Both the position numbers and the translations under genes were made by a program. Under the pieces are notes generated by a model that saw only the letters and a list, made by a program, of their open reading frames with translations, did no database searches and had not been told where the DNA came from. Shown piece after piece: positions 14,956 through 31,552 of a stretch of 64,000 bases of DNA. The number at the start of each line of letters is the position of its first letter. Within the stretch, counting starts at the first letter, position 1. Source of the DNA: Pseudomonadota bacterium (GTDB lineage: Bacteria > Desulfobacterota > Desulfobulbia > Desulfobulbales > SURF-16). The stretch covers positions 71,487 through 135,486 of the forward strand of contig JAHJKA010000048.1 in the NCBI GenBank assembly GCA_018822545.1, in the 5' to 3' direction.

Positions 14956-16065
14956 CTACTGGCTAAAAAATCCCTCAACCAGGACATCATTACCGAAACG
15001 CTTTACCCTACTGGTCTGAAAACGCCGACCGTGCCGGACGTCTGAAATGCCAAGATCACCCACAACAGGAATCGACCCGTTACCCAAGAAAAGCGGCGCC
15101 ATAAAAAGGCTGACCTGATCCACCAGACCCTCTTTCAAAAATGAGGTATGAATAGCACTACCGCCCTCAACAAGCAAACTATTATGGCCCTCTTTACCCA
15201 AGGCCAACAAAACCTCACGCAAATCAAGCCTGCCGCTGGTTTCTGCAACTTCAATGACCCTGGCACCAACCATTTCCAGAGCCTGCCGTTTCTTTTTATC
15301 AGCGTTCACCCTGCAGAAAATCAAGGTCTGGGCAGCTGATTTCTGGCTGAGCATTCCAGCCCCCGGTGACATGCGCAACGAACTGTCCAAAACAACACGC
15401 AAGGGATCCTGGCCCTTGCCACTCGGCAGGCGAGTTGTCAGGGATGGATCATCGTTCAGGGCGGTATCAACTCCCACCAAGATAGCATCAACCCTATCCC
15501 GCAAACGATGCACCTCACGACGGGACTCCTCACTGGTAATCCAGGCACAACGGCCGTCAGCCGCTGCAATACGACCATCAAGGCTACAACCTGCCTTCAT
15601 GATGACCCAGGGCAAGCCGGTGGTGATATGCTTAATAAAAGGCCGGTTGATGGCCCGACACTCGGCAGCCAGCAATTCACCCGCAACCTGCACGCCTTGG
15701 CTTTCAAGAAAATGGCAGCCACTACCGGAGACCAGGGGATTAGGATCCACCATGCCCACAACGACCCTGGCTATGCCGTGTTTAAGAATATCCTGAGTGC
15801 AGGGCGGTGTCTTGCCCGTATGGTTACAAGGTTCCAGAGTGACATACAGCGTCGCCCCCTTCGCCTTCTTCCCCGCCATACGTAAGGCATGTACCTCTGC
15901 ATGGGGGGTACCGGCCTTCTGGTGGTAGCCCTGGCCGATAATCTTGCTGTTTTTAACCACCACGGCGCCGACGAGAGGGTTGGGTGAGGTGCGACCAACA
16001 GCCTTTTGGGCAAGCTTTAAGGCCTGCTTCATAAAAGGCAGGTCAGAGTCAGACGCCAGCCTCAT
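14956..16065 (-). CDS. ribD: Riboflavin biosynthesis deaminase/reductase
   Basis: SPNPLVG, HAE, TLEPC.H.G.TPPC, VEGG; start uncertain (16032-16080). Confidence 0.94.
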
Positions 16066-16522
16066 CTTCCTCGGCCCCAAGCAAGCCTTTCAGCTCATCC
16101 ATAAATTCGTTAAGATCTTTAAACTGACGATAGACTGAGGCAAAACGCACATAGGCCACCTCATCAAGCTTGCGCAGACCGTCCATAATTCTGGCCCCGA
16201 CCAGCTTCACCGGAATTTCACGCTCGCCCATATCCTGAAGATCACGTTCCAGGGCATCGACAAACTCTTCGATATCTGTCATGGAAACCGGGCGTTTCTC
16301 GCAGGCTTTTTTGAGCCCATCAACCACCTTGGTTCGTTCCCATGCCTCCCGGCGACCATCCTTTTTAATGAGCATGGGCATGGTTACTTCCAAACGCTCA
16401 TAGGTGGTAAAACGCCGCTCACACGACTCACATTTCCGCCGCCTGCGGGTAATGGTGTATTCTTTGTTCAGACGTGAATCAACCACCTTGTTTTCCAGGT
16501 GGCCGCAGTATGGGCATTTCAT
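16049..16522 (-). CDS. nrdR: Transcriptional repressor NrdR
   Basis: [29 protein letters not shown]. Confidence 0.96.
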
Positions 16523-16540
16523 ATCATATCCTCGCTGCTC

Positions 16541-17014
16541 TCACTTTCCAGAATCGAGTTTAACCACTTCAATCCCGGCCTCAGCCAGCATCTCGTCGGC
16601 CAGGGCATCGGGGTAGCCTTCTGCATAATAAATGGTTTTAATCTTGGCATTAATCAACATCTTGCTGCAGATTGAACAGGGCATATTAGTGCAGTAGAGA
16701 CTTGAACCCTCAATGGAAACACCATGGGTGGAGGCCTGGACAATGGCATTCTGCTCGGCATGGAGACCCCGGCAGAGTTCATGCCGTTCACCGGAAGGCA
16801 CCTGCAACTGGTCACGCAGGCAACCCACCAGATCACAGTGGCGAATACCGGCGGGCACCCCGTTATAGCCTGTGGCAATAATTCTCTTGTCCCGGACAAT
16901 AATCGCCCCCACCTTCCGCCTCGTACAGGTGGAACGCTCGGCAACATGTTCAGTGATGGAAAGAAAATACTCGTCCCAGGAAGGCCTTTGTTGTTGCGCC
17001 ATGTTACTCGTCAT
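16541..17014 (-). CDS. Cytidine/dCMP deaminase family protein (ComEB-like)
   Basis: [23 protein letters not shown]; start 17014 or 17002. Confidence 0.9.
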
Positions 17015-18263
17015 AATCTCTGGCAATCTCAGGGTAGAGAGGAAATTCCTCGCAGAGCATGCGAACCTCAACCCGAATGCGACCAAGCTCCTCTTTATTC
17101 AAACGATTTTCAATGGCCCGATTGATCCATTCACCAATCTTTTCCATCTCAGCTTCTTTCAGGCCACGGGTGGTCACTGCCGGGGTTCCTATGCGGATAC
17201 CACCAGTGACAAAACGGCTCTGGGTATCAAAGGGAATGGCGTTTTTATTGACAGTAAGGCCCGCAGCCTCCAGGGCCTCTTCCGCATCCTTGCCGGTGAT
17301 CTTTTTATTATTCATATCAACCAAGACAAGATGGTTGTCAGAACCGCCAGATACCAGACGAAAACCATAGGACTGCAACTTCGTGGCAAGGACCTTGGTA
17401 TTTGCCACCACCTGCCTCTGGTAGACCTTGAACTCATCACTCATAGCCTCTTTAAAGGCCACGGCCTTAGCGGCGATGACATGCACCAAAGGGCCCCCCT
17501 GGATACCAGGGAATATTTTCGAATTGAGCTTCTTGCCATACTCTTCATCCGCCAAAATCAGACCGCCACGAGGACCGCGCATGGTCTTATGGGTGGTGGT
17601 GGTGACGAACTGGGCATGACCAATGGGGGAAGGATGAACACCAGCAGCAACAAGACCTGCTATATGGGCCATATCCACCATAAACAGAGCGCCTACCTTG
17701 TCAGCAATGGCTCTGAACCCAGGAAAATCAATGACACGGGGATAGGCGGAGGCGCCGGCTACGATGAGTTTCGGCTTTACTGTTTCGGCCAGCCGTTCCA
17801 CCTCGGCCATATCTATCTGCTCGGTCTCCTTATTCAGACCATAAGAGGTAAAATCATAGAGTTCCCCGGAAAAACTCACCGAGGCGCCATGGGTGAGATG
17901 ACCACCATGTGCCAAATCCATTCCAAGGACCTTATCCCCGGGCTTCAGACAGGCAAAATAAACCGCCATATTGGCCTGGCTACCGGAGTGGGGCTGCACA
18001 TTGGCATAGGGAGCATCAAAGAGCTTGCGAGCCCTGGCAATGGCAAGAGACTCTACCTCATCAGCGTATTCACAGCCGCCGTAATAGCGCTTGTTGGGAT
18101 AGCCCTCGGCATATTTGTTGGTGAAGATAGAGCCTTGGGCTTCAAGGACAGCTGTCGAAACTATATTTTCCGAAGCGATGAGCTCAAGTTGGTTGGTTTG
18201 ACGCTCCAACTCGAAACGAACAGCACGGAAAATTTCAGGGTCACTCTTTTTTAATGATGACAT
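17004..18263 (-). CDS. glyA: Serine hydroxymethyltransferase
   Basis: [27 protein letters not shown]. Confidence 0.97.
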
Positions 18264-18381
18264 GGGATGTACGAATATAGGTAATGAGACAGCATGGACA
18301 AAAAACCGTGGGGGATATCAAGCCACGAATCTTCACTTTGCTTTTTCTCTTATTTGTAGTGTGGGCTAAAATACTCTTTAG

Positions 18382-18807
18382 CTAAGAAAACATTTCAATT
18401 CTACTCAAATGGCGTCCGCCGCCAAATGCGGTGTTCACCCAGGTGGAGACGATTTCAAGGGCCAAACCAGGCCCGACAACGCGAGCACCAAGACAGAGAA
18501 CATTCGCATCATTATGCTCACGGCTCATCCGGGCCGTAAAAAGCTCATGACAAAGGGCCGCCCGAATCTCGCGGTGTCTGTTGGCAGCCATGGACATGCC
18601 GATGCCAGTGCCGCAGATCAGAATACCCCGCTCGCAGCCGCCATCGGTAATGGCCTTACAGACGGCCTCGGCAAAATCGGGGTAATTCACCGAATCAAGT
18701 GAATTCGTGCCTAAATTCACGACCTCATGCCCCATATTCTGAAGAAGAACAACGATCTCCTCTTTCAGCTGAAAGCCGCCGTGGTCACAACCTATTGCAA
18801 TCTTCAC
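18382..18807 (-). CDS. rpiB: Ribose-5-phosphate isomerase B
   Basis: DHGG, CGTGIG, REHNDAN, F.GGRH. Confidence 0.95.
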   Translation of the reverse strand: MKIAIGCDHGGFQLKEEIVVLLQNMGHEVVNLGTNSLDSVNYPDFAEAVCKAITDGGCERGILICGTGIGMSMAANRHREIRAALCHELFTARMSREHNDANVLCLGARVVGPGLALEIVSTWVNTAFGGGRHLSRIEMFS

Positions 18808-18811
18808 CAGA

Positions 18812-20053
18812 TCAGCCCTCGAAACGTTTCATGATAATGACGGCATTGGTGCCGCCAAAACCAAAAGAATTGGACATAGCAGCCCGTATTTTCATCTCTC
18901 TGGCACTGCCAGGAATATAATCCAGATCACATTCCGGATCAGGGTTCTCAAGATTGGCCGTGGGTGGCGCAATCTGATGATGCAAGGATAGAGCGGTAAA
19001 GACCGCTTCAATACCACCGGCACCGCCCAGCATATGACCTGTCATGGATTTTGTAGAACTGATGGCAAGTTTCCTGGCATGCTCACCGTAAACACCCTTA
19101 ATAGCCCTGGTCTCCACCACATCGTTCAAGGGAGTTGAGGTGCCGTGGGCATTGATATAATCAATATCTTCTGGATTCATCTTGGCGTCTTGCAGGGCCA
19201 TCTGCATGCAGCGAATGGCACCATTACCGTCTTCAGGAGGAGCAGCAATGTGGTAGCCGTCACCGGACAGACCGTAGCCTGCCATCTCTGCGTAAATCTT
19301 GGCGCCCCTGGCCTTGGCATGTTCCAACTCTTCAAGGATAAGAATTCCGCCTCCCTCTGCGATAATAAAACCATTACGGTCACGATCAAAGGGGCGTGAA
19401 GCATGTTCTGGGTCATCGTTGCGCTTGGACAGGGCCTTCATGGCGTTAAAACCGCCCACTGCCAGAGGGCAGACAACAGACTCACTGCCACCGGTAAAGG
19501 CAACATCACAATAGCCGCCAGCAATCATGCGGTACGCTTCACCAACGGCGTGCGTACCTGCGGCACAAGCGGTGGTGGTGGACATGTTAGGCCCCTTGGT
19601 CTTATGAAAAATGGAAATCTGGCCTGCAGCCATATTAGGAATCACCATGGGAATAAAGAAAGGGGTAATCTTCCTGGGCCCCCGTTCCATGCAGATCAGG
19701 CTATATTTTTCAATGGCGGGAAGTCCGCCCATACCACAACCAACAATGGAGCCGACCCGGGTGGCGTTTGCTTCGGTCACACCAAAACCAGAATCATCCA
19801 GAGCCATCTTTGCAGCACCGAGGGCATATTGAACAAAGAGTTCAATATGCTTTGCCTCCTTTGCCTCCATGAAGTCTTCGACATTAAAGTCTTTGACCTC
19901 AGCGGCGATCTGCACCGGAAAATCACTGGCGTCAAATCGGGTAATCATGCCAACCCCTGACTTGCCAGCGCAAAGTCCATCCCAGGTTTTCTTTACACCC
20001 GTACCAAGCGGTGTAACCAGGCCAACACCAGTAACCACAACTCTTCGAGCCAT
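18812..20053 (-). CDS. fabF: Beta-ketoacyl-ACP synthase II
   Basis: RRVVVTG start (ATG 20053), TACA, NAHGTST, KSMTGH, NSFGFGG. Confidence 0.96.
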   Translation of the reverse strand: MARRVVVTGVGLVTPLGTGVKKTWDGLCAGKSGVGMITRFDASDFPVQIAAEVKDFNVEDFMEAKEAKHIELFVQYALGAAKMALDDSGFGVTEANATRVGSIVGCGMGGLPAIEKYSLICMERGPRKITPFFIPMVIPNMAAGQISIFHKTKGPNMSTTTACAAGTHAVGEAYRMIAGGYCDVAFTGGSESVVCPLAVGGFNAMKALSKRNDDPEHASRPFDRDRNGFIIAEGGGILILEELEHAKARGAKIYAEMAGYGLSGDGYHIAAPPEDGNGAIRCMQMALQDAKMNPEDIDYINAHGTSTPLNDVVETRAIKGVYGEHARKLAISSTKSMTGHMLGGAGGIEAVFTALSLHHQIAPPTANLENPDPECDLDYIPGSAREMKIRAAMSNSFGFGGTNAVIIMKRFEG

Positions 20054-20126
20054 AATATCCCTCTTTGAATCACGAAACCCGCCCACGCGGCAGGTCAACG
20101 AAGAATCTCCCCTTCTAAAACGGCAG

Positions 20127-20168
20127 AAAACGCCTTACCGTGCCATCGTAATGGCACGGATAAGGCGT
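20127..20168 (-). terminator. Hairpin between acpP and fabF (partial terminator or mRNA stabiliser)
   Basis: ACGCCTTA(T)CCGTGCCAT-TACG-ATGGCACGGTAAGGCGT-TTT on the minus strand. Confidence 0.65.
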
Positions 20169-20218
20169 AACAGTGATTCCACCGACACAAGGTCAATCCG
20201 GCTTGGGCCGGAAGCATG

Positions 20219-20446
20219 TTATAACTTCTGGATATGATCAATAGCAGCTTGTACCGTGGTAATTTTTTCAGCAACTTCGTCAGGAATCTCAGTGTCAAAT
20301 GCCTCTTCCATGGCCATGATCAGCTCAACCAGATCCAGAGAGTCAGCGCCGAGATCATCGACAAAAGAAGCTGAAGGGACAACCTTAGCTTTATCTACAC
20401 TCAATTGTTCTGCAATAATATCAATAAGTTTCGCATCAACAGACAT
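20219..20446 (-). CDS. acpP: Acyl carrier protein
   Basis: [12 protein letters not shown] phosphopantetheine motif. Confidence 0.97.
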
Positions 20447-20546
20447 AATAAGTTCTCCTTAAATAGATGTCTTATAAATCGACTATAAAAGAGCCGATGG
20501 TACTTCAATTTTTAAAATCAGACAATAACCAGAATTGTTTTTTTCA

Positions 20547-21293
20547 CTACCCCATGAACATGCCGCCATTTACATGGATAAACTGACCGGTGATGTAACG
20601 GGCGTCATCAGAGGCCAGAAAGGCAACTGCTGCTGCCACATCATCAGCTTTGCCCATGGATTTCATGGGAATCTCATTTAAAATAATCTCTTTGACCGTG
20701 TCAGGCAGATCCTTGGTCATATCGGTATCGATATAGCCAGGCGCCACGCCGTTCACCGTGATATTACGGGAGGCAAGCTCCTTGGCCAGGGAACGGGTAA
20801 GACCGACAAGACCCGCCTTAGCTGCCGAATAATTGGCCTGACCGGCATTACCAGCAAAACCTATCACCGAGGTGATGTTAATAATCGAGCCGGCGCGCTG
20901 CTTCATCATGGGCCTATTGACGGCTTTAATACAGTTGAAGGCACCCTTGAGGTTCGTATCCATAACCAGATCCCAATCCTCCTCCTTCATCTTCATAAAA
21001 AGACCATCACGGGTGATACCGGCATTGTTTACCAACACATCGATACGGCCATGATCCTCAAGAATCTTTTTAAAGGCAGCCTCCACAGCTGCGCTGTCAG
21101 CCACATTAAACGGGTAGATAGCTGCTTTGCCGCCTGCCTTTTCCACCTCGTCCGCGGTTTGCTGCGCGGCATCTGGACGGCTCACATAATTAATAATAAC
21201 AGTGGCACCCAGGCGACCAAGACGCAGACAAACTGCCTTGCCGATTCCTCGACTACCACCGGTAACAACAGCAACCTTTCCAGTCAAATCCAT
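20547..21293 (-). CDS. fabG: 3-oxoacyl-ACP reductase
   Basis: TGGSRGIG, NNAGITRD, YSAAK; fab cluster context. Confidence 0.95.
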   Translation of the reverse strand: MDLTGKVAVVTGGSRGIGKAVCLRLGRLGATVIINYVSRPDAAQQTADEVEKAGGKAAIYPFNVADSAAVEAAFKKILEDHGRIDVLVNNAGITRDGLFMKMKEEDWDLVMDTNLKGAFNCIKAVNRPMMKQRAGSIINITSVIGFAGNAGQANYSAAKAGLVGLTRSLAKELASRNITVNGVAPGYIDTDMTKDLPDTVKEIILNEIPMKSMGKADDVAAAVAFLASDDARYITGQFIHVNGGMFMG

Positions 21294-21307
21294 AGTACCA
21301 CCTAAGG

Positions 21308-22489
21308 TTAGGAGCGGCGCTCTTTCAATTTCTCAATGACCCTTGGCAGGATCTCAAAAAGATCACCAACCACACCGTAATCAGCCACATCAAAGATGGC
21401 AGCCTTAGGATCCCGATTAATGGCGACAATGGTCTCAGAAGACTTCATACCGATTACATGCTGAATCGCCCCGGAGATACCACAGGCCACATACAATTTT
21501 GAGGCCACAGTCTTGCCGGTTTGCCCGACCTGATGAGGATAGCCGATCCAACCGCTGTCAACAGCAGCACGGGTGGCGCCCACGGCACCATCAAGGAGGG
21601 TCGCAAGTTCTTCAACAAGTCTGAACCCTGCAGGATTATCAAGGCCGCGGCCGCCGGAAACAACCACATCCGCCTCACTCAGGTTCAGCTGTTCGCCCTC
21701 GCTAAGCACGGTACGGACAACCCGGGAGCGTGACTTCAGGCGCGCAGGGGCAATAGTTTCAGCAATCACTTCACCTTTACGGCTGGCATCCGGGGTATTG
21801 GCCTTCATGACCATGGGCCGCACCGTGGACATCTGCGGCCGATGTTTTGGACACATGATGGTGGCCATGATATTACCACCAAAGGCTGGCCGGGTCTGAT
21901 GGAGATGACCATCATCGCCAATGGCAAGATTGGTGCAGTCAGCGGTCAAGCCGGTGGAAAGCGAGGTGGCTACTCTGGGAATAAAGGAGCGGCCAATGGC
22001 AGTAGCTCCAGCCAAAATAACCTCAGGTTTATATTTACGGGCCAGATCTTCCAAGGCGTTACCGTAGGCATCATCGGTGAAATTGACCAAGGCCGAATCT
22101 TCAACGACGTAGACCTTGTCAGCACCGGCAGCAATGAGCTGCTGCGGAACATCCCCTGCCTTGCCACAGAGCAATACAGCCGAAAGGGCAACACCGCGCT
22201 GGGCCGCGAGTTCAGTACCAATCCCCAACAATTCCTTGGTAACCTGAGCCACCTTGTCGTTGCGATACTCGGCATAGACCCAAATCCCTTTCCAGGCAGA
22301 CAAATCCACACCTTCTTCATCACGCTCAATGGAAAGTGCTTCCACCTCACAATGATCAACACAGGTACCACACAGGGTACACAACTCATTAACCACTGCC
22401 TTGCCGTCCTCAACATGGATGGCGTCAAATGGACAGTTGTCCTCGCAGAGGCCACATCCAATACAGGCTTCACTATCAATAATCAACAT
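21308..22489 (-). CDS. etfA: Electron transfer flavoprotein alpha subunit with N-terminal 2x[4Fe-4S] ferredoxin domain
   Basis: CIGCGLCEDNCP and CTLCGTCVDHC; TRPAFGGN, QVGQTGK, GISGAIQH. Confidence 0.93.
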   Translation of the reverse strand: MLIIDSEACIGCGLCEDNCPFDAIHVEDGKAVVNELCTLCGTCVDHCEVEALSIERDEEGVDLSAWKGIWVYAEYRNDKVAQVTKELLGIGTELAAQRGVALSAVLLCGKAGDVPQQLIAAGADKVYVVEDSALVNFTDDAYGNALEDLARKYKPEVILAGATAIGRSFIPRVATSLSTGLTADCTNLAIGDDGHLHQTRPAFGGNIMATIMCPKHRPQMSTVRPMVMKANTPDASRKGEVIAETIAPARLKSRSRVVRTVLSEGEQLNLSEADVVVSGGRGLDNPAGFRLVEELATLLDGAVGATRAAVDSGWIGYPHQVGQTGKTVASKLYVACGISGAIQHVIGMKSSETIVAINRDPKAAIFDVADYGVVGDLFEILPRVIEKLKERRS

Positions 22490-22507
22490 AGTACAAGAAC
22501 CGTAAGA

Positions 22508-23296
22508 TTACGCGCCGTGGGCGCTGTCTGATAAAATGTCCGCTAATTGCTCAGCGATCTCATCCAAGCTTCCCTCAAGCATGGTTCGAACTCCCTTGGG
22601 CTCGGGAGGAAACACCTTGACCACCCAGGTAGGCGAACCGCCTAAACCCAGCTGGTCCGGGTCGGCGTCAATGTCCGTAGCAGTGTAGCTGGGTATATCA
22701 AAGGCCTTGGCCTTGCGTAAACCTCTAATCGAAGGGAACCGAGGAACATTGATTTCCTTGACCACAGTAAGAAGGGCAGGCAGATCAATCTCAAGCTCAT
22801 CATAACCGTCATCCATCATCCGTTCGACGCTCATGACCTTATCCTTGACACCGGTTATCTTCTTGACACAGGTAACGTAAGGCATACCAAGCCGCACCGC
22901 CAGTCCAGGACCTACCTGAGCAGTATCACCGTCAGTGGCCTGTTTACCGCAGATGACCAGATCCACATCACCGGTCTTCTTGATGGCCTGGGCCAGAGTA
23001 TAGGTGGTGGCCAGAGTATCAGCGCCGGCAAAGGCCCGATCAGAAACCAAAATAGCATCATCCACGCCGCAGGAAATGGCTTCTTGTAAAATGGCCTTAG
23101 CCTGAGGAGGCCCCATGGAAACCACGGTGACCGTGCCGCCATACTGCTCCTTAAGACGCACTCCCTCTTCCATGGCATGACGGTCATAGGGGTTGATCAC
23201 CGATTTCACGCCTTCTCGAGAGAGGGTGTTTGTCACGGGATCAAGGCGAACATCCTTGGCATCTGGAACTTGTTTTATGCAGACAACAATTCTCAT
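22508..23296 (-). CDS. etfB: Electron transfer flavoprotein beta subunit
   Basis: CIKQVPD, FAGADTLAT, GKQATDGDTAQVGP. Confidence 0.94.
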   Translation of the reverse strand: MRIVVCIKQVPDAKDVRLDPVTNTLSREGVKSVINPYDRHAMEEGVRLKEQYGGTVTVVSMGPPQAKAILQEAISCGVDDAILVSDRAFAGADTLATTYTLAQAIKKTGDVDLVICGKQATDGDTAQVGPGLAVRLGMPYVTCVKKITGVKDKVMSVERMMDDGYDELEIDLPALLTVVKEINVPRFPSIRGLRKAKAFDIPSYTATDIDADPDQLGLGGSPTWVVKVFPPEPKGVRTMLEGSLDEIAEQLADILSDSAHGA

Positions 23297-23371
23297 AGCT
23301 CTTTATCAGAAATTTCTTTTTTTAATTAAGGGCACACAAACATCAAGTTGCCTGCCTCCCGGTGCCACGTA

Positions 23372-24520
23372 TCAGGTATACTCTTTATTGAGCTCCTGGC
23401 CCACGACATTACGCTGAATCTGATTTGTTCCTTCGTAGATCTGGAGAATCTTGGCATCACGCATCATCTTCTCCACCGGATACTCACGCATATAGCCGTA
23501 ACCGGCGAGAACCTGAACCGCATCAACGGTCACCTTCATGGCGACATCGGTAGCCTTGACCTTACACATGGCAGAGGCCTTGGACATATCCTTGGGATGG
23601 GCGTCAATATGACGGGCGGCGACATACACCAGGGCGCGGGCCGCTTCAGTTTCAATGGCCATATCAGCCAACATATGCTGAACAGCCTGAAAGGCGATAA
23701 TAGGCTTGCCAAACTGATAACGTCCCTTAGCATACGTTACAGACTCATCAAGGGCAGCCTGGGCCAGGCCAACACCAAGGCTTGCGATACCGGGTCTGGA
23801 CTTATCAAGGGTCTTCATGACGGTGATAAAACCCGTGCCCTGACGACCAATCATCCGGTCTTTTGGGATACGGCAATCCTTAAAGATGAGCTCGGTGGTG
23901 GCGGAGCAGCGGATGCCCATCTTCTTTTCCTTGGGACCACAGGAAAAGCCGGGATCATCAGACTCGACCACAAACATGGAGGCACCACGAGGGCCCTTAG
24001 TGGGATCGGTAATAGCGATAACTGTATAAAGATGGGCCTGACCACCATTGGTGATCCACTGCTTGGTACCGTTCAACACCCACTCATCACCATCTAAGAC
24101 GGCGGTGGTCTGGATACCTCCGGCATCACTCCCGGCATTAGACTCCGTAAGGGCAAAGGCAGCCCGTTTTTTGCCTGAGGCAATATCGGGCAGATACTTT
24201 GATTTCAGTTCATGACTGCCGCCGACAACAATGGGGTAGGCGCCAAGAGCACTCGCCGCATAGGCTGTGGCGATAGCCACACAACCGCGACCAATCTGCT
24301 CCAAGGCCAAAACCAAGTCATAACAACCACCACCGAGTCCCCCGTATTCAACAGGTACGAAAAGGGCAAAAAAATCGGATTTCGCCAGGGTCTCGACAAT
24401 ATCAAGAGGATACTCCTCTGTTTCGTCATACCTCGCCCGATTGGGGATAATCATCTCGTCAGTAATCTGTCTAGCCAGATCGACAATCATCTGCTGATCT
24501 TCGGTCAGGAAATGATCCAC
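23372..24520 (-). CDS. Acyl-CoA dehydrogenase family flavoprotein
   Basis: FALTE..AGSD, LNGTK.WITN, R.QFGKPI, IYEGTNQIQR with catalytic Glu. Confidence 0.93.
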   Translation of the reverse strand: MDHFLTEDQQMIVDLARQITDEMIIPNRARYDETEEYPLDIVETLAKSDFFALFVPVEYGGLGGGCYDLVLALEQIGRGCVAIATAYAASALGAYPIVVGGSHELKSKYLPDIASGKKRAAFALTESNAGSDAGGIQTTAVLDGDEWVLNGTKQWITNGGQAHLYTVIAITDPTKGPRGASMFVVESDDPGFSCGPKEKKMGIRCSATTELIFKDCRIPKDRMIGRQGTGFITVMKTLDKSRPGIASLGVGLAQAALDESVTYAKGRYQFGKPIIAFQAVQHMLADMAIETEAARALVYVAARHIDAHPKDMSKASAMCKVKATDVAMKVTVDAVQVLAGYGYMREYPVEKMMRDAKILQIYEGTNQIQRNVVGQELNKEYT

Positions 24521-24570
24521 TCTTTACACCTTTATCTCGTATTTATAAAAGAGACTCTCAATCAAGAGAC

Positions 24571-25554
24571 TCACTGCCATTTAATTAATGTTGCACCCCA
24601 GGTGAAACCACCACCAAAGGCACATAAAACTATATACTCACCTGACTGCAGAAGCCCTTCACGATTGGCCTCATCAAGGGCCAGAGGAATAGTAGCCGCC
24701 GATGTATTACCATACTTGGAAACATTAATGTAGACTTTTTCCGCATCGACACCGAGCTTTTGGGTCAACTTGTTGATGATGCGGATATTTGCCTGATGTG
24801 GCACAATAAGACTCACTTCGCCAATATCCACCCCGGCCTGACCAAGCACCACTCGCACAGCATTTTCCATGGCGTTGACGGCATATTTAAAAACATCCTT
24901 GCCAACCATCTTTATAAAGGATCCCTGATACTCACCGTTATTCAGGGCAGGATTGAGGCTCTGGGCACCGTCCATATAAAGAAGATTATGAAGGGACCCA
25001 TCAGAAAACAGCTTTTCGGCGATAAGGCCGTCGCCCAATTCACTGCTGCCGAGAACCACGGCCCCTGCGGCATCACCAAAGAGGACGCAGGTATTGAGAT
25101 CCTGCCAGTCCACTCTGGTGGAAAGAGTTTCGGCGCCAATCACCAGAATCTTGAGCTGTGGATTAACCAAAATATGTTTTTCTGCCACGCTCAAGGCGTA
25201 TAAAAACCCAGAACAAGCAGCATTGACATCAAAGGCAAAGGCATTGACCGCACCTATCTCATTCTGGACCAGACAGGCACAGGAAGGCATGGTCATCTCA
25301 GCACTGACCGTAGCGACAATAAGGATATCAATCTCAGAAGGGGCAAGACCGGCGGCCACAAGAGCATTTTCAGCGGCCCGGCTGGCCAAAACTGATGTAT
25401 ACTCCCCAGCCCCTGAAATATGGCGATTTTTTATACCAGTACGAGTGGTAATCCACTCATCGGAGGTATCCACCATCTTCTCCAGATCCTCATTGGAGAG
25501 CGTCCTGTCTGGCACATAGGAACCCGTAGCCAGTATGGATGCCCGCAAGCTCAT
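24571..25554 (-). CDS. fabH: Beta-ketoacyl-ACP synthase III
   Basis: NAACSGF, PHQAN, GNTSAA catalytic triad. Confidence 0.96.
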   Translation of the reverse strand: MSLRASILATGSYVPDRTLSNEDLEKMVDTSDEWITTRTGIKNRHISGAGEYTSVLASRAAENALVAAGLAPSEIDILIVATVSAEMTMPSCACLVQNEIGAVNAFAFDVNAACSGFLYALSVAEKHILVNPQLKILVIGAETLSTRVDWQDLNTCVLFGDAAGAVVLGSSELGDGLIAEKLFSDGSLHNLLYMDGAQSLNPALNNGEYQGSFIKMVGKDVFKYAVNAMENAVRVVLGQAGVDIGEVSLIVPHQANIRIINKLTQKLGVDAEKVYINVSKYGNTSAATIPLALDEANREGLLQSGEYIVLCAFGGGFTWGATLIKWQ

Positions 25555-26576
25555 TGCTCATCCTCCAGATCTGAAGAACTCAAGCCTGCCTCATCCAGGG
25601 CTAGGTTAGCCAGGATATGATCATTGACTCGGTTGGAAGCCAACTCACCGGCAACCAGGATGGCATTCTTGATAGCCTTGGCGTTTGAACGTCCATGGCA
25701 GATAATCCCTGTACCATTAAGACCAAGAAGTGGCGCACCGCCATACTCGGCATAATCAACCCGCTTCTTGAAGTTGCCGAAGGCCTGTTTGGCCAAAAAA
25801 TATCCCATTTTAGCCTTAAAAGTCTTGGCTATCTCATCGCGGAGCATGAGAAGAACCGCTTCTGACAAACCTTCGCTCAGCTTAAGGCAGACATTCCCCA
25901 CAAAACCGTCACAAACGATAACATCAACATCTCCCTGAAAGGTATCACGTCCTTCAACATTGCCGATGAAATTAAGATTGCTGGCGGCCAGGAGTTCGTG
26001 GGTTTTTTTGACAAGCACATTGCCCTTGCTCCCCTCCTCGCCAATGCTAAGCAGTCCGACCCTGGGCTCGGGTATCCCGAACATAATCTTGGAAAAGGCG
26101 GAGGCCATAACCCCGAACTGATAAAGATGCTTTGGCCGACAATCGACATTGGCGCCTACATCCGCCATTACAACCGGACCTTTCAAGGTGGGTAAAACCG
26201 AGGCAATGGCCGGACGACTGATATCCTTGAGACGCCCAAGAAATTTAATGGCCGCAGCCATCACTGCCCCAGAATTGCCAGCGCTGACAACAGCATCAAC
26301 CTCTTTATTCTTGAGAAGCTCAAAGGCGCGTACCATTGAGGAATCTTTCTTTTTGCGAATGGCATCCATAGGGCTGTCCCCCATGGTTACCACCTGAGTT
26401 GTGGGGAATATAGATATGAGAGGATCCTGCCGCCGCAATGCAAGGGCAGAAGAGATCGCTTCTTCATCACCTACCAAGGTGATCTTGATAGAACTTTCAC
26501 GAAGTGCCTGGAGAGCGCCCGAGACAAGCTCGTCAGCACCCCGGTCACTACCCATGACATCAAGAGCGATATGCAC
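25551..26576 (-). CDS. plsX: Phosphate acyltransferase PlsX
   Basis: IALD.MG.D, SAGNSGA, DGFVGN, GGAPLLG. Confidence 0.96.
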   Translation of the reverse strand: MHIALDVMGSDRGADELVSGALQALRESSIKITLVGDEEAISSALALRRQDPLISIFPTTQVVTMGDSPMDAIRKKKDSSMVRAFELLKNKEVDAVVSAGNSGAVMAAAIKFLGRLKDISRPAIASVLPTLKGPVVMADVGANVDCRPKHLYQFGVMASAFSKIMFGIPEPRVGLLSIGEEGSKGNVLVKKTHELLAASNLNFIGNVEGRDTFQGDVDVIVCDGFVGNVCLKLSEGLSEAVLLMLRDEIAKTFKAKMGYFLAKQAFGNFKKRVDYAEYGGAPLLGLNGTGIICHGRSNAKAIKNAILVAGELASNRVNDHILANLALDEAGLSSSDLEDEQ

Positions 26577-26860
26577 GTGAACTCACCACAATGAGAAAAC
26601 TTTTAAAGGTCAAGCAAACAGCTCCACTCTGTGACGTTCCCAAGAGCTGCAACCTGCCTCCTGAAACTTTACAGGGGGCCAAAATGTTTGCTTCACCAAC
26701 GGCAAAGGAAACAAACTAACTGCTGGAGGAACTTAAAGAAATAGCTAATACTGTAACAATTACAATGCAGGGCAGAAAGTAACCCTAAATAGAGAGCAGC
26801 ACAAGTCAAAACAGGTGGTTAGACCATTTTTCTTGCCTGAAAAGGAATGGTACGAGAAGA

Positions 26861-26893
26861 AATCCCTGAAGACCAAAATGATCTTCAGGGATT
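26861..26893 (-). terminator. Probable terminator after rpmF
   Basis: 12-bp inverted repeat AATCCCTGAAGA / TCTTCAGGGATT. Confidence 0.6.
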
Positions 26894-26919
26894 AAAGCAA
26901 ATGTCTTGGCGCAAACAAC

Positions 26920-27108
26920 CTACTCGAAATTTTCGTCAAGTTTTATAACTGCACGTCCTTTATAGGTTCCGCAGCTACCGCAGAGACGATGTGGCATCTT
27001 AGGCTCGCCACACTCACTACAGGAACCAACCTTGGGGGCAGTAAGGGCATGATGGGAACGTCCCATATGTGTCTTTGAATAAGATTTTCTTCTTTTTGGT
27101 AAGGCCAT
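26920..27108 (-). CDS. rpmF: 50S ribosomal protein L32 (Zn-binding form)
   Basis: MALPKRRKS, CSECG..K.PHRLCGSCG.Y. Confidence 0.95.
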   Translation of the reverse strand: MALPKRRKSYSKTHMGRSHHALTAPKVGSCSECGEPKMPHRLCGSCGTYKGRAVIKLDENFE

Positions 27109-27343
27109 TGTATATTCTCCGTAACGGAATGATCGAACGTAGTTAAAAGGCATTCAGCCCATTGTACTTCTTTTTCAAAGCCAGACTTACGCTTGACAGA
27201 AACAAGCTTACAGCTTAGCTGCTCTACTATTAAAGATAACTGGAAAGCGAAACAAATTAAAAAAAAGTGCTAAATATGTCAAGCTTTTTATAACAAAGAA
27301 AAATTTAGATTTGAAATCTACCCTTCATTTCTCAAATGCAACC

Positions 27344-27799
27344 CTAGAGTAACTGGGCCAACCTGGCGCTTGATTTCTGGAGCCGGGCGCCTAAGACCCG
27401 AATAATCTTTTTGAGTAATTTGACCGCCAGTAATGGATTCGCCTCAAGAAGCTGCTGCGCCTTGGAATGGGTAAGAAGGAGAATTTCACTCTCCTCCATA
27501 GCAACCACCGTGGCAGTCCGTGGATTTTCTTCCACCACGGAGATTTCACCGACCAAGGACCCACTTTCCAGAATTGCCACCAACACAAACTTGCCCGGGA
27601 AGCTGGTCTCCTTTTTGATGGCCAGCTTGCCTGTCAACAAAAACCCCATAAAATCACCGGGGTCGCCCTGCCGAATAAAAACCTCGTCCTTAGCGCATTT
27701 TTTATATTCCAAAAACGAACAGAGGATCTTGCACTCCTCAGGCAGGAGATAGGGGAAACTCTTGGCAAGGGCAACATCACTGACCAAACGGCAACCCAT
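27344..27799 (-). CDS. Stand-alone cyclic nucleotide-binding domain protein
   Basis: QGDPGD, GEISVVEENPRTATV phosphate-binding cassette; no HTH seen. Confidence 0.88.
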   Translation of the reverse strand: MGCRLVSDVALAKSFPYLLPEECKILCSFLEYKKCAKDEVFIRQGDPGDFMGFLLTGKLAIKKETSFPGKFVLVAILESGSLVGEISVVEENPRTATVVAMEESEILLLTHSKAQQLLEANPLLAVKLLKKIIRVLGARLQKSSARLAQLL

Positions 27800-27800
27800 A

Positions 27801-28448
27801 TCAGCTTATCTCCTTACTGGCGTTTGCAGAGCTTTTAGATTCTGCAATTTTCTCTTCGAGCCGGTGCACCAACTCCTCATATCCTTCTTTCTGGATAACG
27901 CTGATAAACTGACTTCGGTAATTACTTACCAGACTGACGCCCTCAATGACCACATCATAGACAAACCATTGGTTATCCTTCTGGTACATCTTATAGGCGG
28001 CAGAAATCTCCCGCCCCTGCTGAGTCACCAGAGAGTTGACCACCGCCTTATCACCGCGGATAAGAACCTTGTCGAAAACAACTTTATAACTGCCATCTGA
28101 GTATGTTTTCAGTCTTTCGACATAGGTATCTTTTAAAATCTCCTTGAAGAGCGTGACGAATTTTTCCTGTTCAACACTCGACCTTTCGTTCCATGTTTGG
28201 GCAAGGGCACGCTTAGCCATCTCCGCAAAATCAAAACGGCCGGCAACCTCTTCCGAAACCATTTCACGGCGCTCCTGCCAATGATCATCACCGGCCAGAG
28301 CGGGCTCAGTGAGAATCTCCATGACATTTTCGACAGTTGCCTGCATGGTAGATTGGGGATCATTGGCCCAGGCCAAACCTCCGTGAACAAAAAGACAAGC
28401 ACACACCAGTAGAACCTGAAGTCCCAGTATTTTATTATTTCTGTCCAT
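27801..28448 (-). CDS. mlaC: MlaC/Ttg2D phospholipid shuttle
   Basis: Signal peptide; FDF.EMAKRAL; YDVVIEGVSLVSNYRSQF. Confidence 0.92.
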   Translation of the reverse strand: MDRNNKILGLQVLLVCACLFVHGGLAWANDPQSTMQATVENVMEILTEPALAGDDHWQERREMVSEEVAGRFDFAEMAKRALAQTWNERSSVEQEKFVTLFKEILKDTYVERLKTYSDGSYKVVFDKVLIRGDKAVVNSLVTQQGREISAAYKMYQKDNQWFVYDVVIEGVSLVSNYRSQFISVIQKEGYEELVHRLEEKIAESKSSANASKEIS

Positions 28449-29481
28449 GTCGTTCTGTCACCATAGCCACCTGCTGCCCCAAAGCACTCTGTTCATCCAA
28501 CACAACCAGATACATGGCGCGCCCCTGCTTTTGGGTACGGTTGACCGATGCCTGCGCCCCCGTTTTTTCCAGACATTGTTTATATTTTCGCGCCCCTGCC
28601 AGGTTACGAAACGTCGCATTACTATATTGCGACGGACATTGCTCCTGGTAAGCGACTGCCCCACTTCCGGGCTCCGTCCCCATATCCTGAGAGCCAGCAG
28701 AACCAGCGCTGGCCACAAGACTGCGCCGATGCTGGTAGTAAATGTCCCGAAGTGAAATATAGGGATCAAAGGCGTCAGCGACAAGCCCTTCATAATCTTT
28801 ACCATGCAAGGTTGCCGCATTCTCAATCTTCAACGCTGTCAGACCGGCATTAGTTCCCGGCTCGGCCGCAAAAATATACTGCAGAGGATTTAGGAAATAA
28901 TCACCTGCCATCCCTACGGTATCCCGAGCCGTGGATGGCCCCAGCAAGGGCCAGCAGATATAGATACCCTCGCCAACCCCATAAAACCCAAGGGTTTGGC
29001 CCAGATCCTCATCAGCCTTGTCCAGGCCGAAGGACTCGGCCGCCGGATCCCCCAACCCACCAGCACCCAAAACAGTATTAATGGCAAAACGGGCCAGCTC
29101 GGTTCCAGTTTGCTTAAACTTGCCCTGCAGGAGATTATTTACCACTCGAACCGGCGCCAGAACATTATGAAAAGCAGCGCTGACACAGCCCCGGAGCGCC
29201 TCGTCGGCAAACACAGCAGTGTACACCTTGCCCACTGGCTTCAGAACCCAGAAATAAAGCCTGTCATTAAAAACAAAAAAAATCCTATTGACCGGCTCCA
29301 AAGGGTCATAAACCACGATCGCGTCCTTCTCTGTAAACTCATCGTCAAACAGAGCTTCCAGATCGCCATCAGCAGCGTGAAGAGAACTGACCAGAGGCAT
29401 GACGACAATAACAGCAGCAAGCAGCCCCCGTTTGCAAAAAGTACCGAAAGAGATCACTGAGTTACACCTTGCCAAAGACAA
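28435..29481 (-). CDS. mlaA: MlaA/VacJ family protein with C-terminal extension
   Basis: DPLEP.NR..F.FN, NNLLQG, RF.INT..G.GG, EDLGQTLG, GPST.RD, DPY...RD.Y.Q.R. Confidence 0.9.
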   Translation of the reverse strand: MSLARCNSVISFGTFCKRGLLAAVIVVMPLVSSLHAADGDLEALFDDEFTEKDAIVVYDPLEPVNRIFFVFNDRLYFWVLKPVGKVYTAVFADEALRGCVSAAFHNVLAPVRVVNNLLQGKFKQTGTELARFAINTVLGAGGLGDPAAESFGLDKADEDLGQTLGFYGVGEGIYICWPLLGPSTARDTVGMAGDYFLNPLQYIFAAEPGTNAGLTALKIENAATLHGKDYEGLVADAFDPYISLRDIYYQHRRSLVASAGSAGSQDMGTEPGSGAVAYQEQCPSQYSNATFRNLAGARKYKQCLEKTGAQASVNRTQKQGRAMYLVVLDEQSALGQQVAMVTERHGQK

Positions 29482-29908
29482 ATTGACTGATCAAATCTTC
29501 CAGGTCGATGGCTGACTCGGTCTCAAAGAGCAGCTCACCCTCCTTGATAATATTATCTGACCCCCCCTGACTGATCTTGATAAATTTATCGCCAATGATT
29601 CCCTGAGTCTTGATGGAGGCAATGGCATCATCAGTGAGTTTCACCTTTTTTTGCAGATAGAGGTCAACATGGGCCATATTGTCCTTGGACAGCTCAATGC
29701 CGGACACCTTACCAATGACCACGCCGGCCATGGAGACATTAGCGCCAACTTTCAAGCCGGAAACATTATCGAATTCAGCGGTAATCGTATAATACTTGCC
29801 AGACTCAAAGAGGGAAAACTCCCCAAATTGCGTTGTCATATAGGCAAATGCTCCAAATCCAACCAACAGGAAGAGGCCAACGATAAAATCAAAACGCGTT
29901 TTTCTCAT
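29462..29908 (-). CDS. mlaD: MlaD (MCE domain)
   Basis: N-terminal TM; F.NVSGLKVGA.V..AGV.IG.V; T.GIIGDKFI. Confidence 0.93.
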   Translation of the reverse strand: MRKTRFDFIVGLFLLVGFGAFAYMTTQFGEFSLFESGKYYTITAEFDNVSGLKVGANVSMAGVVIGKVSGIELSKDNMAHVDLYLQKKVKLTDDAIASIKTQGIIGDKFIKISQGGSDNIIKEGELLFETESAIDLEDLISQFVFGKV

Positions 29909-29996
29909 AAATGGCTACCAGTGTCTATGAATCGTGATGCTGATCCAGGGAAACGTACTCTTATATTTTTAATGACTCGCACAAAAACAGGCGAAA

Positions 29997-30764
29997 TCAT
30001 TCAAGCTCCTCAGAACTCGAATAGACATCGCCCATGGTTTGCTCAACAAATTCCATAATGTTTGGATCCTCAGAGTGCTGAATATCTTCCGGATGTTCAA
30101 ATACCGTCATCGTACCGTCATTTAAAATCACCACCTGATCGGCAAGATTAAAAACCTTGGGGATATCATGGCTGACAATGATGGACGTAAAGCCAAACTC
30201 CTTCTGGGTCCTGAAGAAAAGACGGTAGATATCCATGGTAATCTGCGGATCAAGGCCTGTGGTCGGCTCATCGAAAAGGACGATATCCGGTTTGAGCATG
30301 GTAGCCCGGGCAAGTCCCACCCTTTTCTTCATGCCGCCTGAAAGCTGGGCCGGAAATTTATCGCCATGCCCTGTCAAATCAAACTGGGCCAAAGCCCCTT
30401 CCACCCTGCTGATCAATTCTTCATCCTTAATTTTCGTGCGTTCACGAAGAGGAAGGGCGACATTCTCCCACACGGTCATGGAGTCAAGAAGAGCCGAGCC
30501 CTGAAACAAAACCCCAAATTTTGCCCGTACCTGATCAAGCTCTTTGCGGCTCAGCTTACCCACGTCACAACCATCCACGAGAATTTGGCCACTGTCAGGG
30601 GCCATGAGGCCCAGGATCAGCTTAAGGGAAACACTTTTCCCTTGGCCACTGCCGCCGGCAATGACCGTGGTTTTTCCCGCCAAGAACTCAACATTGACAT
30701 GATCAAGAACCACCTGATCACCGAACTTCTTGACCACGTCCACAAAACGTATGGCAGGCTTCAT
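29997..30764 (-). CDS. mlaF: MlaF ABC ATPase
   Basis: GGSGQGKS, LSGGMKKRVGLARA, DEPTTGLDP; start ATG 30764 overlaps the mlaE stop. Confidence 0.92.
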   Translation of the reverse strand: MKPAIRFVDVVKKFGDQVVLDHVNVEFLAGKTTVIAGGSGQGKSVSLKLILGLMAPDSGQILVDGCDVGKLSRKELDQVRAKFGVLFQGSALLDSMTVWENVALPLRERTKIKDEELISRVEGALAQFDLTGHGDKFPAQLSGGMKKRVGLARATMLKPDIVLFDEPTTGLDPQITMDIYRLFFRTQKEFGFTSIIVSHDIPKVFNLADQVVILNDGTMTVFEHPEDIQHSEDPNIMEFVEQTMGDVYSSSEELE

Positions 30765-31552
30765 ATAAAGACCGCCGTGATCAGGTAATTCCACAGCAAG
30801 ACAGCGATGGAGGTATACACAACGGCCTGAGTAGTGACCCTGCTGACTCCTTCGGCGCCAAAGCCGGCATTCTTGATCTGCTGGACAAAATAGCCTCGGC
30901 CTGTGCATATCCAGACCACGAGCAAACCAAACGCCAGCGACTTATAAATGCCGAGGCTAATATCCTCGTTCAGTACCTTGACTTCAATGCCATTCATATA
31001 GGCCCCGGGATTAACGCCAAGCAAAACGACTCCGGAGAGATAGCCACCAAAGATTCCTATGAGATCAAACATGGTGGTCAAGATAGGCAGGGCAATGATG
31101 GTGGCCAAAAACTTCGGGCTGATGAGATAGCGAAAAGGATCAATAGCCATACACTCAAGGGCATCAAATTGCTCGGAGTTGCGCATGATGCCAAGTTCGG
31201 CACACATGGCTGAACCAGCCCTGCCGGTAACCATGAGGGCGGTCAACACCGGACCAAGTTCACGGATGAGACTGAGAGAAACCAGCATCCCCAAGGTACC
31301 CTCCATGCCCACTTTGCTCAGGGTATAATAGCCCTGGAGACCGAGAACCATACCAGTAAACAGCCCGATGAACAGAATAAGAGGGGTAGAATTCACACCG
31401 ATCTGCCGAAGCTGCCGGACAAGCTCTCCCAACCGAAAAGGTCGCTTAAAGCAGCCGGCAAGGGTATAGCCGAGAAAACCCGCCATGCGGCCAAGGTCTC
31501 GTACATGGTAGAGTGTGCCTGCACCCAGCTGTTCTATTGCTCGAACAATCAT
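30761..31552 (-). CDS. mlaE: MlaE permease
   Basis: RELGPVLTAL...GRAGSA..AELG.M. Confidence 0.94.
   Translation of the reverse strand: MIVRAIEQLGAGTLYHVRDLGRMAGFLGYTLAGCFKRPFRLGELVRQLRQIGVNSTPLILFIGLFTGMVLGLQGYYTLSKVGMEGTLGMLVSLSLIRELGPVLTALMVTGRAGSAMCAELGIMRNSEQFDALECMAIDPFRYLISPKFLATIIALPILTTMFDLIGIFGGYLSGVVLLGVNPGAYMNGIEVKVLNEDISLGIYKSLAFGLLVVWICTGRGYFVQQIKNAGFGAEGVSRVTTQAVVYTSIAVLLWNYLITAVFI

Follow-up and report, generated by a model that had tools for sequence, protein, structure and literature searches.

In type II fatty-acid synthesis the product of FabZ, an enoyl thioester of the acyl carrier protein (enoyl-ACP), is the substrate for any enoyl reductase, whereby known reductases are grouped into the FabI, FabL, FabK and FabV classes; FabK of streptococci sits in the fab operon and B. 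subtilis carries two reductases, FabI and FabL. Thioesters of coenzyme A (CoA) are substrates of flavoproteins of the acyl-CoA dehydrogenase (ACAD) fold, and complexes of such an enzyme with an electron-transfer flavoprotein (Etf) include CarCDE from Acetobacterium woodii (PDB 6FAH), which serves caffeate respiration by reducing a phenylacrylyl-CoA ester. Thioesters tethered to a carrier protein can also be accepted by the ACAD fold, as is evident from MbtN and from the prolyl-ACP/peptidyl carrier protein dehydrogenases AnaB (4IRN) and PigA (6AF6), all three being oxidative tailoring enzymes of secondary metabolism. For Bcd-EtfAB (C. difficile, 5OL2; A. fermentans, 4L1F and 4KPU) the excerpted text of PMC5691135 reports that an enoyl thioester is physiologically reduced with NADH while ferredoxin becomes reduced, and FabX of H. 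pylori, a decanoyl-ACP dehydrogenase/isomerase with FMN and a [4Fe-4S] cluster, is described in the excerpted text of PMC8626469 as a flavoenzyme acting on acyl-ACP and enoyl-ACP with electrons passing via Fe-S. The present work concerns a stretch of 64,000 nucleotides (nt), referred to as the window, which lies on contig C44 of a 3.34-Mb metagenome-assembled genome (MAG; 94 contigs, 84.8% complete; hereafter the source genome) and in which genes for an ACAD, for EtfB and for a ferredoxin-fused EtfA reside within a fab operon. This ACAD-EtfAB module is suggested, with a probability of about one half, to be an Etf-coupled and probably electron-bifurcating enoyl-ACP reductase which was recruited into type II fatty-acid synthesis.

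The operon and the subunits of the module

Open reading frames and family matches bear out the gene order which an earlier note on this DNA had given, namely plsX-fabH-ACAD-etfB-etfA-fabG-acpP-fabF on one strand. The genes of the operon, those flanking it and the fabZ gene found elsewhere in the window are the following (bit scores are given against the cut-off of the respective model where there is one):

26920-27153, minus: rpmF, ribosomal protein L32 (PF01783, 79.7 bits)
25551-26576, minus: plsX, phosphate acyltransferase (TIGR00182, 366.5 bits against 243.4)
24571-25554, minus: fabH, beta-ketoacyl-ACP synthase III (NF006829, 419.7 against 249; TIGR00747, 392.9 against 292.1)
23372-24520, minus: ACAD-fold flavoprotein, 382 amino acids (PF02771, PF02770 and PF00441)
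22508-23296, minus: etfB, small Etf subunit (PF01012)
21308-22489, minus: etfA, large Etf subunit, 393 amino acids (PF01012, PF00766 and N-terminal Fer4)
20547-21293, minus: fabG, 3-oxoacyl-ACP reductase (TIGR01830, 346.8 bits against 297.75)
20219-20446, minus: acpP, acyl carrier protein (NF002149, 112.7 bits against 106)
18812-20098, minus: fabF, beta-ketoacyl-ACP synthase II (TIGR03150, 646.5 bits against 493.75)
18382-18807, minus: rpiB, downstream of fabF
17004-18263, minus: glyA, downstream of rpiB
48318-48731 (G000:C44:119804-120217), minus: fabZ, 3-hydroxyacyl-ACP dehydratase (TIGR01750, 192.7 bits against 155.15)

The rpmF gene, which is the usual neighbour upstream of plsX-fab operons, is separated from plsX by 343 nt, the stop of plsX overlaps the start of fabH by 4 nt, and rpiB and glyA follow fabF in related loci too. 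From the coordinates, gaps of 50, 75, 18 and 14 nt were obtained for fabH-ACAD, ACAD-etfB, etfB-etfA and etfA-fabG, identical to those noted before, and gaps of 100 and 120 nt for fabG-acpP and acpP-fabF. A scan of positions 16500-28500 revealed no minus-strand terminator-like site in the intergenic gaps of the operon, with counts near the shuffled expectation (promoter-like sites 15 versus 13.3, terminator-like sites 19 versus 12.1). Profile searches identified neither fabD nor a recognised enoyl reductase among the genes of the window, which agrees with the earlier statement that fabD, fabI, fabK, fabL and fabV are missing from it: the best matches in the genome all lie on other contigs and FabV was unmatched. 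The fabD gene was located on contig C30 between lspA and ffh, and a tblastn search of the genome found no second copy of acpP.

All sequence motifs reported earlier are present, i.e., two CxxCxxCxxxC motifs in EtfA, GADTLAT and GKQATDGDTAQVGP in EtfB and YEGT in the ACAD, whereby a DGDTAQVGP-type EtfB motif is taken by us to mark the bifurcating group. The five best PDB matches of EtfB (CarD 239, LctB 238, T. maritima 230, A. fermentans 227 and C. difficile 223 bits) are all bifurcating or confurcating proteins, while non-bifurcating Etfs reach at most 98 bits; likewise the five best solved relatives of EtfA (275-402 bits) are all bifurcating or confurcating and the non-bifurcating ones reach at most 183 bits. 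The N-terminal 2x[4Fe-4S] ferredoxin domain of EtfA comprises approximately residues 1-58 (nt 22316-22489; Fer4, 52.6 bits, two stretches), and residues 5-389 align with CarE (6fah_A, 402 bits), thereby covering both [4Fe-4S] motifs, whereas the alignments with 5ol2_A and 4kpu_A of the Bcd-type complexes start at residues 70 and 60, respectively, and leave the ferredoxin domain uncovered. The proposal of a bifurcating-type, CarE-like Etf thus finds support by similarity. Two CxxCxxCxxxC motifs were identified in 78 of 88 EtfA genes which adjoin orthologues of the ACAD.

The ACAD is of the short/medium-chain type with all three ACAD Pfam domains present, and residue E363 of the YEGT motif, which presumably serves as catalytic base as in ACADs in general, is invariant in 38 of 38 family members. 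A profile built from these 38 members is closest to 5ol2_C (C. difficile Bcd, 495 bits) and 4l1f_A (A. fermentans, 491 bits), hence the window ACAD is nearer to Bcd than to CarC (402 bits); the two Bcd structures carry one residue more in a helix near family positions 88-90. Both Etf-docking positions of C. difficile Bcd, E198 and D345, are occupied by acidic residues in the window ACAD: its E198 does not vary within the family, and its E346 is the counterpart of D345 in the alignment. According to the excerpted text of PMC5691135, the two Bcd residues form salt bridges to EtfA R243 and dock EtfA domain II. The best NCBIfam match of the ACAD is AcrC, and the AcrC, AcrB and AcrA models score the trio below their cut-offs (420 versus 640, 231 versus 475 and 337 versus 600 bits), as does every curated equivalog for CoA-level reductases or dehydrogenases with the ACAD. 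The models of the carrier-protein-dependent enzymes MbtN, RedW and PigA remain under their cut-offs too (66 versus 700, 245 versus 650 and 224 versus 500 bits), and AnaB (4irn, 182 bits) and PigA (6af6, 152 bits) are much more distant than the Bcd structures. ACAD, EtfA and EtfB gave zero matches to the FabI/FabL, FabK and FabV models.

Among 105 longer ACAD relatives natural fusions of a Bcd-like ACAD (43-48% identity) with an Etf domain (PF01012, in some cases PF00766) were observed, as were fusions of a Bcd-like ACAD with rubredoxin and Etf-alpha domains. The named sources of ACAD-Etf fusions are MAGs of Clostridiales and Oscillospiraceae, and eukaryotic or tandem ACADs also occur among these longer relatives.

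By similarity the trio is a complex of the CarCDE or Bcd-Etf type. It shares with CarCDE the combination of ACAD, EtfB (239 bits to CarD) and an EtfA that begins with a 2x[4Fe-4S] ferredoxin domain, and with Bcd-EtfAB the closest ACAD structures, the catalytic Glu and the acidic docking residues; its Etf resembles the bifurcating type in sequence. Judged from these features, the module possesses the architecture of CarCDE and Bcd-EtfAB but not their CoA-pathway context, as crt, hbd and thl neither accompany it nor were found genome-wide, and its proposed substrate would be ACP-bound with chains of C4 to C16-18. As compared to the known enoyl-ACP reductases, the reaction proposed is the same but the module matches no FabI, FabK, FabL or FabV family: FabI and FabL are short-chain dehydrogenases/reductases (SDR) and FabK is an FMN-containing TIM barrel, whereas the module, unrelated in fold and cofactors, would combine an FAD-containing ACAD fold with an Etf that carries two FAD as well as two [4Fe-4S] clusters, and it would use two NADH per reduction and yield reduced ferredoxin. 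FabX differs by its nitronate-monooxygenase (NMO) fold and its oxidative direction.

Source genome and occurrence of the module

Genome-wide, PF00441 is matched once, by the ACAD of the operon, and PF01012 twice, by its EtfA and EtfB. A crotonase (ECH_1) match was not found, 3-hydroxyacyl-CoA dehydrogenase models (3HCDH) gave only partial matches of 24 bits and thiolase models only weak matches that fall on beta-ketoacyl-ACP synthase (KAS) genes, each within a genome that is 84.8% complete. Subject to this completeness, no pathway of the beta-oxidation or butyrate type is therefore evident that would feed or use the ACAD, and a function as catabolic Bcd was rejected for the source genome.

A FabL-type enoyl-ACP reductase is encoded at G000:C63:2943-3746 on the minus strand (NF005975, 360 bits against a cut-off of 328), with 277 bits to B. 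subtilis FabL (3oic) and 148 bits to the next SDR; it adjoins maf, near glyS, and is away from any fab gene. FabI, FabV and FabA were not found in the source genome (best FabA match 26 bits). Contig C25 encodes a 320-residue protein of the NMO family (G000:C25:188905-189819, L001:1495-2457, minus strand, adjoining pcnB), which scores 196 bits on the FabK model (cut-off 453) and, among solved structures, is most similar to FabK (148 bits) and FabX (125 bits). Four cysteines of its CX3CX3CX4C motif align one-to-one with H. pylori FabX, while the two FabK structures shown lack them; in FabX, following the excerpted text of PMC8626469, the [4Fe-4S] ligands are C300, C304, C308 and C320 and the domain takes the place of FabK's NAD(P)H motif. 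The C25 protein may act in the anaerobic synthesis of unsaturated fatty acids as an enzyme of the FabX type, or it may be a reductase that depends on Fe-S; compared with the ACAD, it is the more natural candidate for introducing double bonds anaerobically. Similar proteins (approximately 170-200 bits on TIGR03151) were seen in most Desulfobulbales-like genomes, and in MAGs of Margulisiibacteria and Saganbacteria they lie beside a FabG-like SDR match (G046:C118, G044:C5).

For the wider occurrence of the module, one genome per species was scanned and the best 80 of at least 597 relatives (58-79% identity) were kept, whereby gene context was obtained by tblastn with the window proteins and labelled by hand. 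Among these best 80 related loci 48 are fab-linked, with fab genes accompanied by etfBA in 34 cases, fab genes without etf in 11 and fab genes in a locus cut by the contig end in three; 12 loci possess etfBA only, two possess etf in a locus cut by the contig end and 18 possess none of the queried neighbours. Fab-linked loci derive from Desulfobulbales/Desulfobulbaceae MAGs (all of theirs), Desulfobacca, Nitrospirota, Margulisiibacteriota, Saganbacteria, Omnitrophota and Ratteibacteria, and in MAGs of Nitrospiraceae and Clostridia the ACAD or ACAD-etfBA is surrounded by unrelated housekeeping genes rather than by a butyrate operon. A quick maximum-likelihood tree of 81 ACAD sequences largely matches taxonomy and places the window ACAD into a 20-member clade (SH-like approximate likelihood-ratio support 100), every member of which is fab-linked. 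Context labels cluster on this tree, with 16 changes as compared to a shuffled mean of 41.3 (0 of 200 shuffles as low), and when the four large context groups alone were considered, 0 of 500 shuffles needed as few changes.

From the phylum of the window, 151 evenly sampled genomes, the source genome included, were examined with an orthologue threshold of E <=1e-133 and at least 53% identity, paralogues starting at E >=1e-124. Thus defined, 73 genomes carry an orthologue of the ACAD (carriers) and 78 do not. The ACAD resides inside the fab operon in 68 of the 73 carriers, 43 of them with adjacent etfBA and 25 without adjacent etf, the latter typically in the order plsX-ACAD-fabD-fabG-acpP-fabF; the other five carriers possess ACAD-etfBA only. 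It nearly always adjoins plsX or fabH, and in many operons it directly follows plsX with no fabH beside it. In five genomes checked that have the ACAD but no adjacent etf, Etf was found elsewhere in all five and was ferredoxin-fused in three. Conservation of the synteny, which had been named as a test of the proposal, was hence observed both in the phylum sample and among the best 80 loci, extending over several phyla.

Four loci (L104-L106 and L194, from G080, G119, G154 and G187) encode ACAD-etfB-etfA outside the fab operon; three of the genomes are closed (1.6-1.8 Mb) and one is a MAG of the same family (f32). The EtfA matches in these loci start at query residues 72-123 with no ferredoxin domain seen, and no known enoyl reductase was seen in the four genomes.

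Known enoyl-ACP reductases were called in the phylum sample by NF005717 at E <=1e-55 for FabI (control matched in 7 of 14 model genomes), by scores over the model cut-off for FabL and by E <=1e-35 for FabK/NMO-like proteins. FabI was identified in 1 of 73 carriers as opposed to 21 of 78 non-carriers, which makes the ACAD and FabI nearly exclusive over the 151 genomes; the respective numbers are 6 and 0 for FabL, 1 and 0 for FabV and 32 and 49 for FabK/NMO-like genes, of which many non-carriers possess several paralogues. None of the four classes was detected in 35 carriers as compared to 15 non-carriers (Fisher p = 2.5e-4) and, counted by family, the ACAD occurs in 31 of 76 families and FabI in 14, with a single family possessing both (Fisher p = 0.0055); since relatedness makes the genomes dependent on one another, both values exaggerate the signal, which is a caution against the function suggested here. 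The 35 carriers without any of the four classes comprise 30 genomes that are at least 90% complete and four that consist of a single contig (G080, G119, G154 and G156); sorted by context they account for 19 of 43 carriers with fab operon and Etf, 11 of 25 with fab operon only and 5 of 5 with Etf only. A laxer NMO threshold (E <=1e-8) yielded matches, mostly FabX-sized (360-397 residues, 94-122 bits), in 10 of these 35 carriers and in 6 of the 15 non-carriers without the four classes, while 25 of the 35 carriers have no NMO-family match even at this level. Matches to the FabI model at E <=1e-38 were obtained in only two of the 50 genomes lacking the four classes, both of them carriers, with scores at SDR level.

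A separate screen covered 50 of the genomes behind the 80 loci (48 fab-linked and 2 others, the other 30 being left out). FabL over the cut-off was found in 14 of them, all of the Desulfobulbales-like group, FabI in one, FabV in none and FabK-like proteins (E <=1e-30) in 33, none over the cut-off; 12 of the 48 fab-linked genomes possess none of the four classes. With 14 of 50 genomes in the locus set and 6 of 151 in the phylum sample, FabL is patchy, and all genomes with FabL are carriers of the ACAD. FabA-like genes occur in 8 of the 151 genomes, all of them non-carriers and none with FabI. The idea that the FabI pattern is a proxy for FabA was rejected, as a FabA-like match was found in 0 of 22 FabI genomes. 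Of the anti-correlation between the module and known reductases that the earlier note had proposed to test, the part concerning FabI is therefore seen (1 of 73 versus 21 of 78), while 38 of the 73 carriers do possess some reductase-like gene.

Proposed enoyl-ACP reduction and competing explanations

The module is reasoned to work in type II fatty-acid synthesis because of its position in the fab operon, because it is the sole ACAD and Etf of a genome in which no CoA-ester pathway is evident, and because of the complementarity with FabI together with the genomes that have no known reductase. Reduction of trans-2-enoyl-ACP is proposed because it is the sole step of the pathway whose chemistry fits a complex of the Bcd/CarC type; we infer that the substrate is ACP-bound, that the reaction proceeds in the reductive direction and that bifurcation itself takes place. 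The suggested mechanism assumes that NADH would reduce the bifurcating FAD on EtfB and that the electrons would then part: one would reach a low-potential acceptor, such as ferredoxin or flavodoxin, by way of both [4Fe-4S] clusters in the ferredoxin domain of EtfA, and the other would be relayed by the swinging EtfA FAD to the flavin (FAD) of the ACAD. After two rounds, the FADH- of the ACAD would reduce the trans-2-enoyl-ACP delivered by FabZ to acyl-ACP, resulting in the net reaction 2 NADH + oxidised ferredoxin + enoyl-ACP -> 2 NAD+ + reduced ferredoxin + acyl-ACP. Potentials of -10 mV for crotonyl-CoA, -320 mV for NADH and -405 mV for ferredoxin are given in the excerpted text of PMC5691135, and the potential of enoyl-ACP is expected to be similar to that of crotonyl-CoA. 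Each elongation cycle would hence recover part of the large free-energy drop of enoyl reduction. In many relatives the module would be the only enoyl reductase, and in the source genome it would work beside the FabL-type enzyme, with which it would be redundant.

Several findings weigh against this assignment. The presence of FabL in the source genome means that the ACAD-Etf module is not required to complete the pathway there. Within the phylum sample, 38 of 73 carriers do have a FabI, FabL, FabV or FabK-like gene, and in 21 of these 38 a FabK-family match (E <=1e-60) is the sole such gene. Adjacent etf genes are missing from the 25 operons mentioned above, and the two sets of genomes are not fully separate, as G048 and G158 yielded identical match coordinates. 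Furthermore, 15 of 78 non-carriers (G068, G070, G071, G075, G077, G084, G086, G112, G117, G123, G128, G149, G150, G157 and G182) have no recognised reductase either, and the five of them that were inspected (L135-L139) possess an ordinary plsX-(fabH-fabD)-fabG-acpP-fabF-rpiB-glyA operon with nothing extra. Absence of a known reductase consequently does not point to the ACAD alone, and the phylum may harbour another unrecognised or undetected enoyl-ACP reductase which could also serve carriers. The ACAD itself aligns over nearly its whole length with CoA-dependent enzymes (best solved relative 382 bits) and is, by its sequence, an ordinary Bcd-like enzyme, while the model of the acyl-ACP dehydrogenase MbtN yields its 66 bits only. 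Models, structure alignments and a fusion search identified no ACP-docking or ACP-over-CoA feature in it; fusions of the ACAD with ACP or Fab proteins number 0 among the 105 longer relatives, which is weak evidence. A complex prediction with two ACAD chains and AcpP gave a score of 0.00 (mark 0.32) with controls that did not fold and was used neither for nor against binding. The claim first made for this locus, i.e., enoyl reduction of type II fatty-acid synthesis coupled to bifurcation, is accordingly backed by synteny, FabI pattern and Etf type and is called into question by FabL and by the 15 non-carriers. Of the pair of observations that had been named as speaking jointly against it, a canonical reductase elsewhere was indeed found (FabL), whereas the synteny turned out to be conserved.

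One alternative listed in the earlier note reverses the reaction, such that the ACAD would be an acyl-ACP dehydrogenase/isomerase for O2-independent synthesis of unsaturated fatty acids in the manner of FabX, converting medium-chain acyl-ACP via trans-2-enoyl-ACP into cis-3-enoyl-ACP while Etf removes the electrons. FabX, as described in the excerpted text of PMC8626469, shows that fatty-acid synthesis can include a backward step of this kind, and the location of the module in a fab operon, the lack of FabA in the source genome and the restriction of FabA-like genes to eight non-carriers would all be in line with it. This function is nevertheless judged to be quite improbable because the source genome already encodes, separately and on another contig, the FabX-like flavoprotein with its four FabX-aligned cysteines, which fits double-bond introduction more naturally and weakens the desaturation proposal as a whole. 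In addition, Etfs of the bifurcating type that have a CarE-like ferredoxin domain are known from enoyl-reducing complexes, the oxidation of an acyl thioester (-10 mV) into NAD+ would be uphill without extra input, and the anti-correlated partner FabI is a reductase, with no FabA-like match in any of the FabI genomes.

Next to this, a reductase acting on enoyl-CoA (of the Bcd, acryloyl-CoA or caffeyl-CoA type) has to be considered, which would provide FabH with short acyl-CoA primers or simply conserve energy and whose place in the operon would reflect co-regulation. The closest solved or curated relatives (5ol2, 4l1f, CarC and AcrC) all use CoA esters, the ACAD follows fabH in the window and in many loci, and its sequence offers no ACP-specific feature; yet this explanation is held unlikely, as no enoyl-CoA source is evident in the 84.8% complete source genome, the curated CoA-reductase models all score below their cut-offs, and the trios of Clostridia MAGs sit amid housekeeping genes and not in a butyrate operon. 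Supply of primers, also an idea of the earlier note, is weakened by the missing crotonase, thiolase and convincing hbd and by the many operons in which the ACAD comes right after plsX with no adjoining fabH, and it would leave both the FabI complementarity and the reductase-less genomes unexplained. A third explanation assumes another lipid-linked role, for instance modification of acyl chains given to PlsX, or an Etf that is merely co-located and balances redox, linking the pace of synthesis to the pools of ferredoxin and NADH, whereby the true reductase of reductase-less carriers would be an unrecognised protein. The 15 non-carriers without known reductase indicate that at least one unrecognised reductase probably exists in the phylum, and the neighbourhood of plsX or fabH would suit such a role. 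Its probability is considered low, since 68 of 73 carriers and members of several phyla keep the position, no other ACAD or Etf was found in the source genome, and the chemistry of the module fits the one step which in many such operons has no enzyme.

Should the function as enoyl-ACP reductase hold true, a known architecture for bifurcating enoyl-thioester reduction would have been found in a new pathway, probably with a new substrate class. Titles and abstracts in the literature, with most subscription journals outside the scope, hold no report of a fab operon that contains an ACAD-Etf module, or of such a module acting as enoyl-ACP reductase. The more far-reaching view, that the module represents a separate and evolutionarily unrelated class of bifurcating enoyl-ACP reductase which would be the main or only one in about half of the phylum genomes sampled and in some Nitrospirota, Margulisiibacteria, Omnitrophota and further anaerobic lineages, and which would be the first bifurcating step described in core anabolism, is put forward tentatively and falls slightly short of an even chance. 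In many anaerobes an enzyme has yet to be assigned to enoyl reduction, for which the ACAD-Etf module is a concrete and testable candidate. If confirmed, a new class of enoyl-ACP reductase would be gained and bifurcation would serve biosynthesis beyond energy metabolism, with one reduced ferredoxin pair regained per C2 unit put into lipids, and estimates of the cost of lipid synthesis would shift for energy-limited sulfate reducers, relatives of cable bacteria and subsurface lineages. Annotation and genome-scale models would improve for genes which are now named butyryl-CoA dehydrogenase, and any insensitivity to inhibitors of FabI-type enzymes would be explained. A second gap concerns the genomes with an ordinary fab operon and neither the module nor a known reductase, in which one more unrecognised reductase may exist.

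Neighbouring genes and a further cluster

A second fab-like cluster was observed on contig C19 of the source genome at approximately 14000-43000. It comprises a FabD-like gene (14266-15099, 77 bits), an SDR gene (24529-25284), a FabZ-like gene (27860-28288, 51 bits) and two KAS genes (32518-33387 and 41485-42606), and it may belong to a polyketide, aryl-polyene or special-lipid pathway.

Upstream of rpmF, the minus strand of the window (27344-30908) encodes a protein with a domain for binding cyclic nucleoside monophosphates (cNMP) and lipid-transport genes of the Mla type:

27344-27799, minus: small cNMP-binding-domain protein
27801-28448, minus: MlaC
28435-29481, minus: MlaA
29462-29908, minus: MlaD
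29997-30908, minus: ABC ATPase of the Mla-type set

Genes of outer-membrane lipid transport thus directly adjoin the lipid-synthesis operon. The sole large plus-strand gene thereabouts, at 31856-33550, encodes a B12-binding radical-SAM protein of 564 amino acids with a DUF4080 domain.

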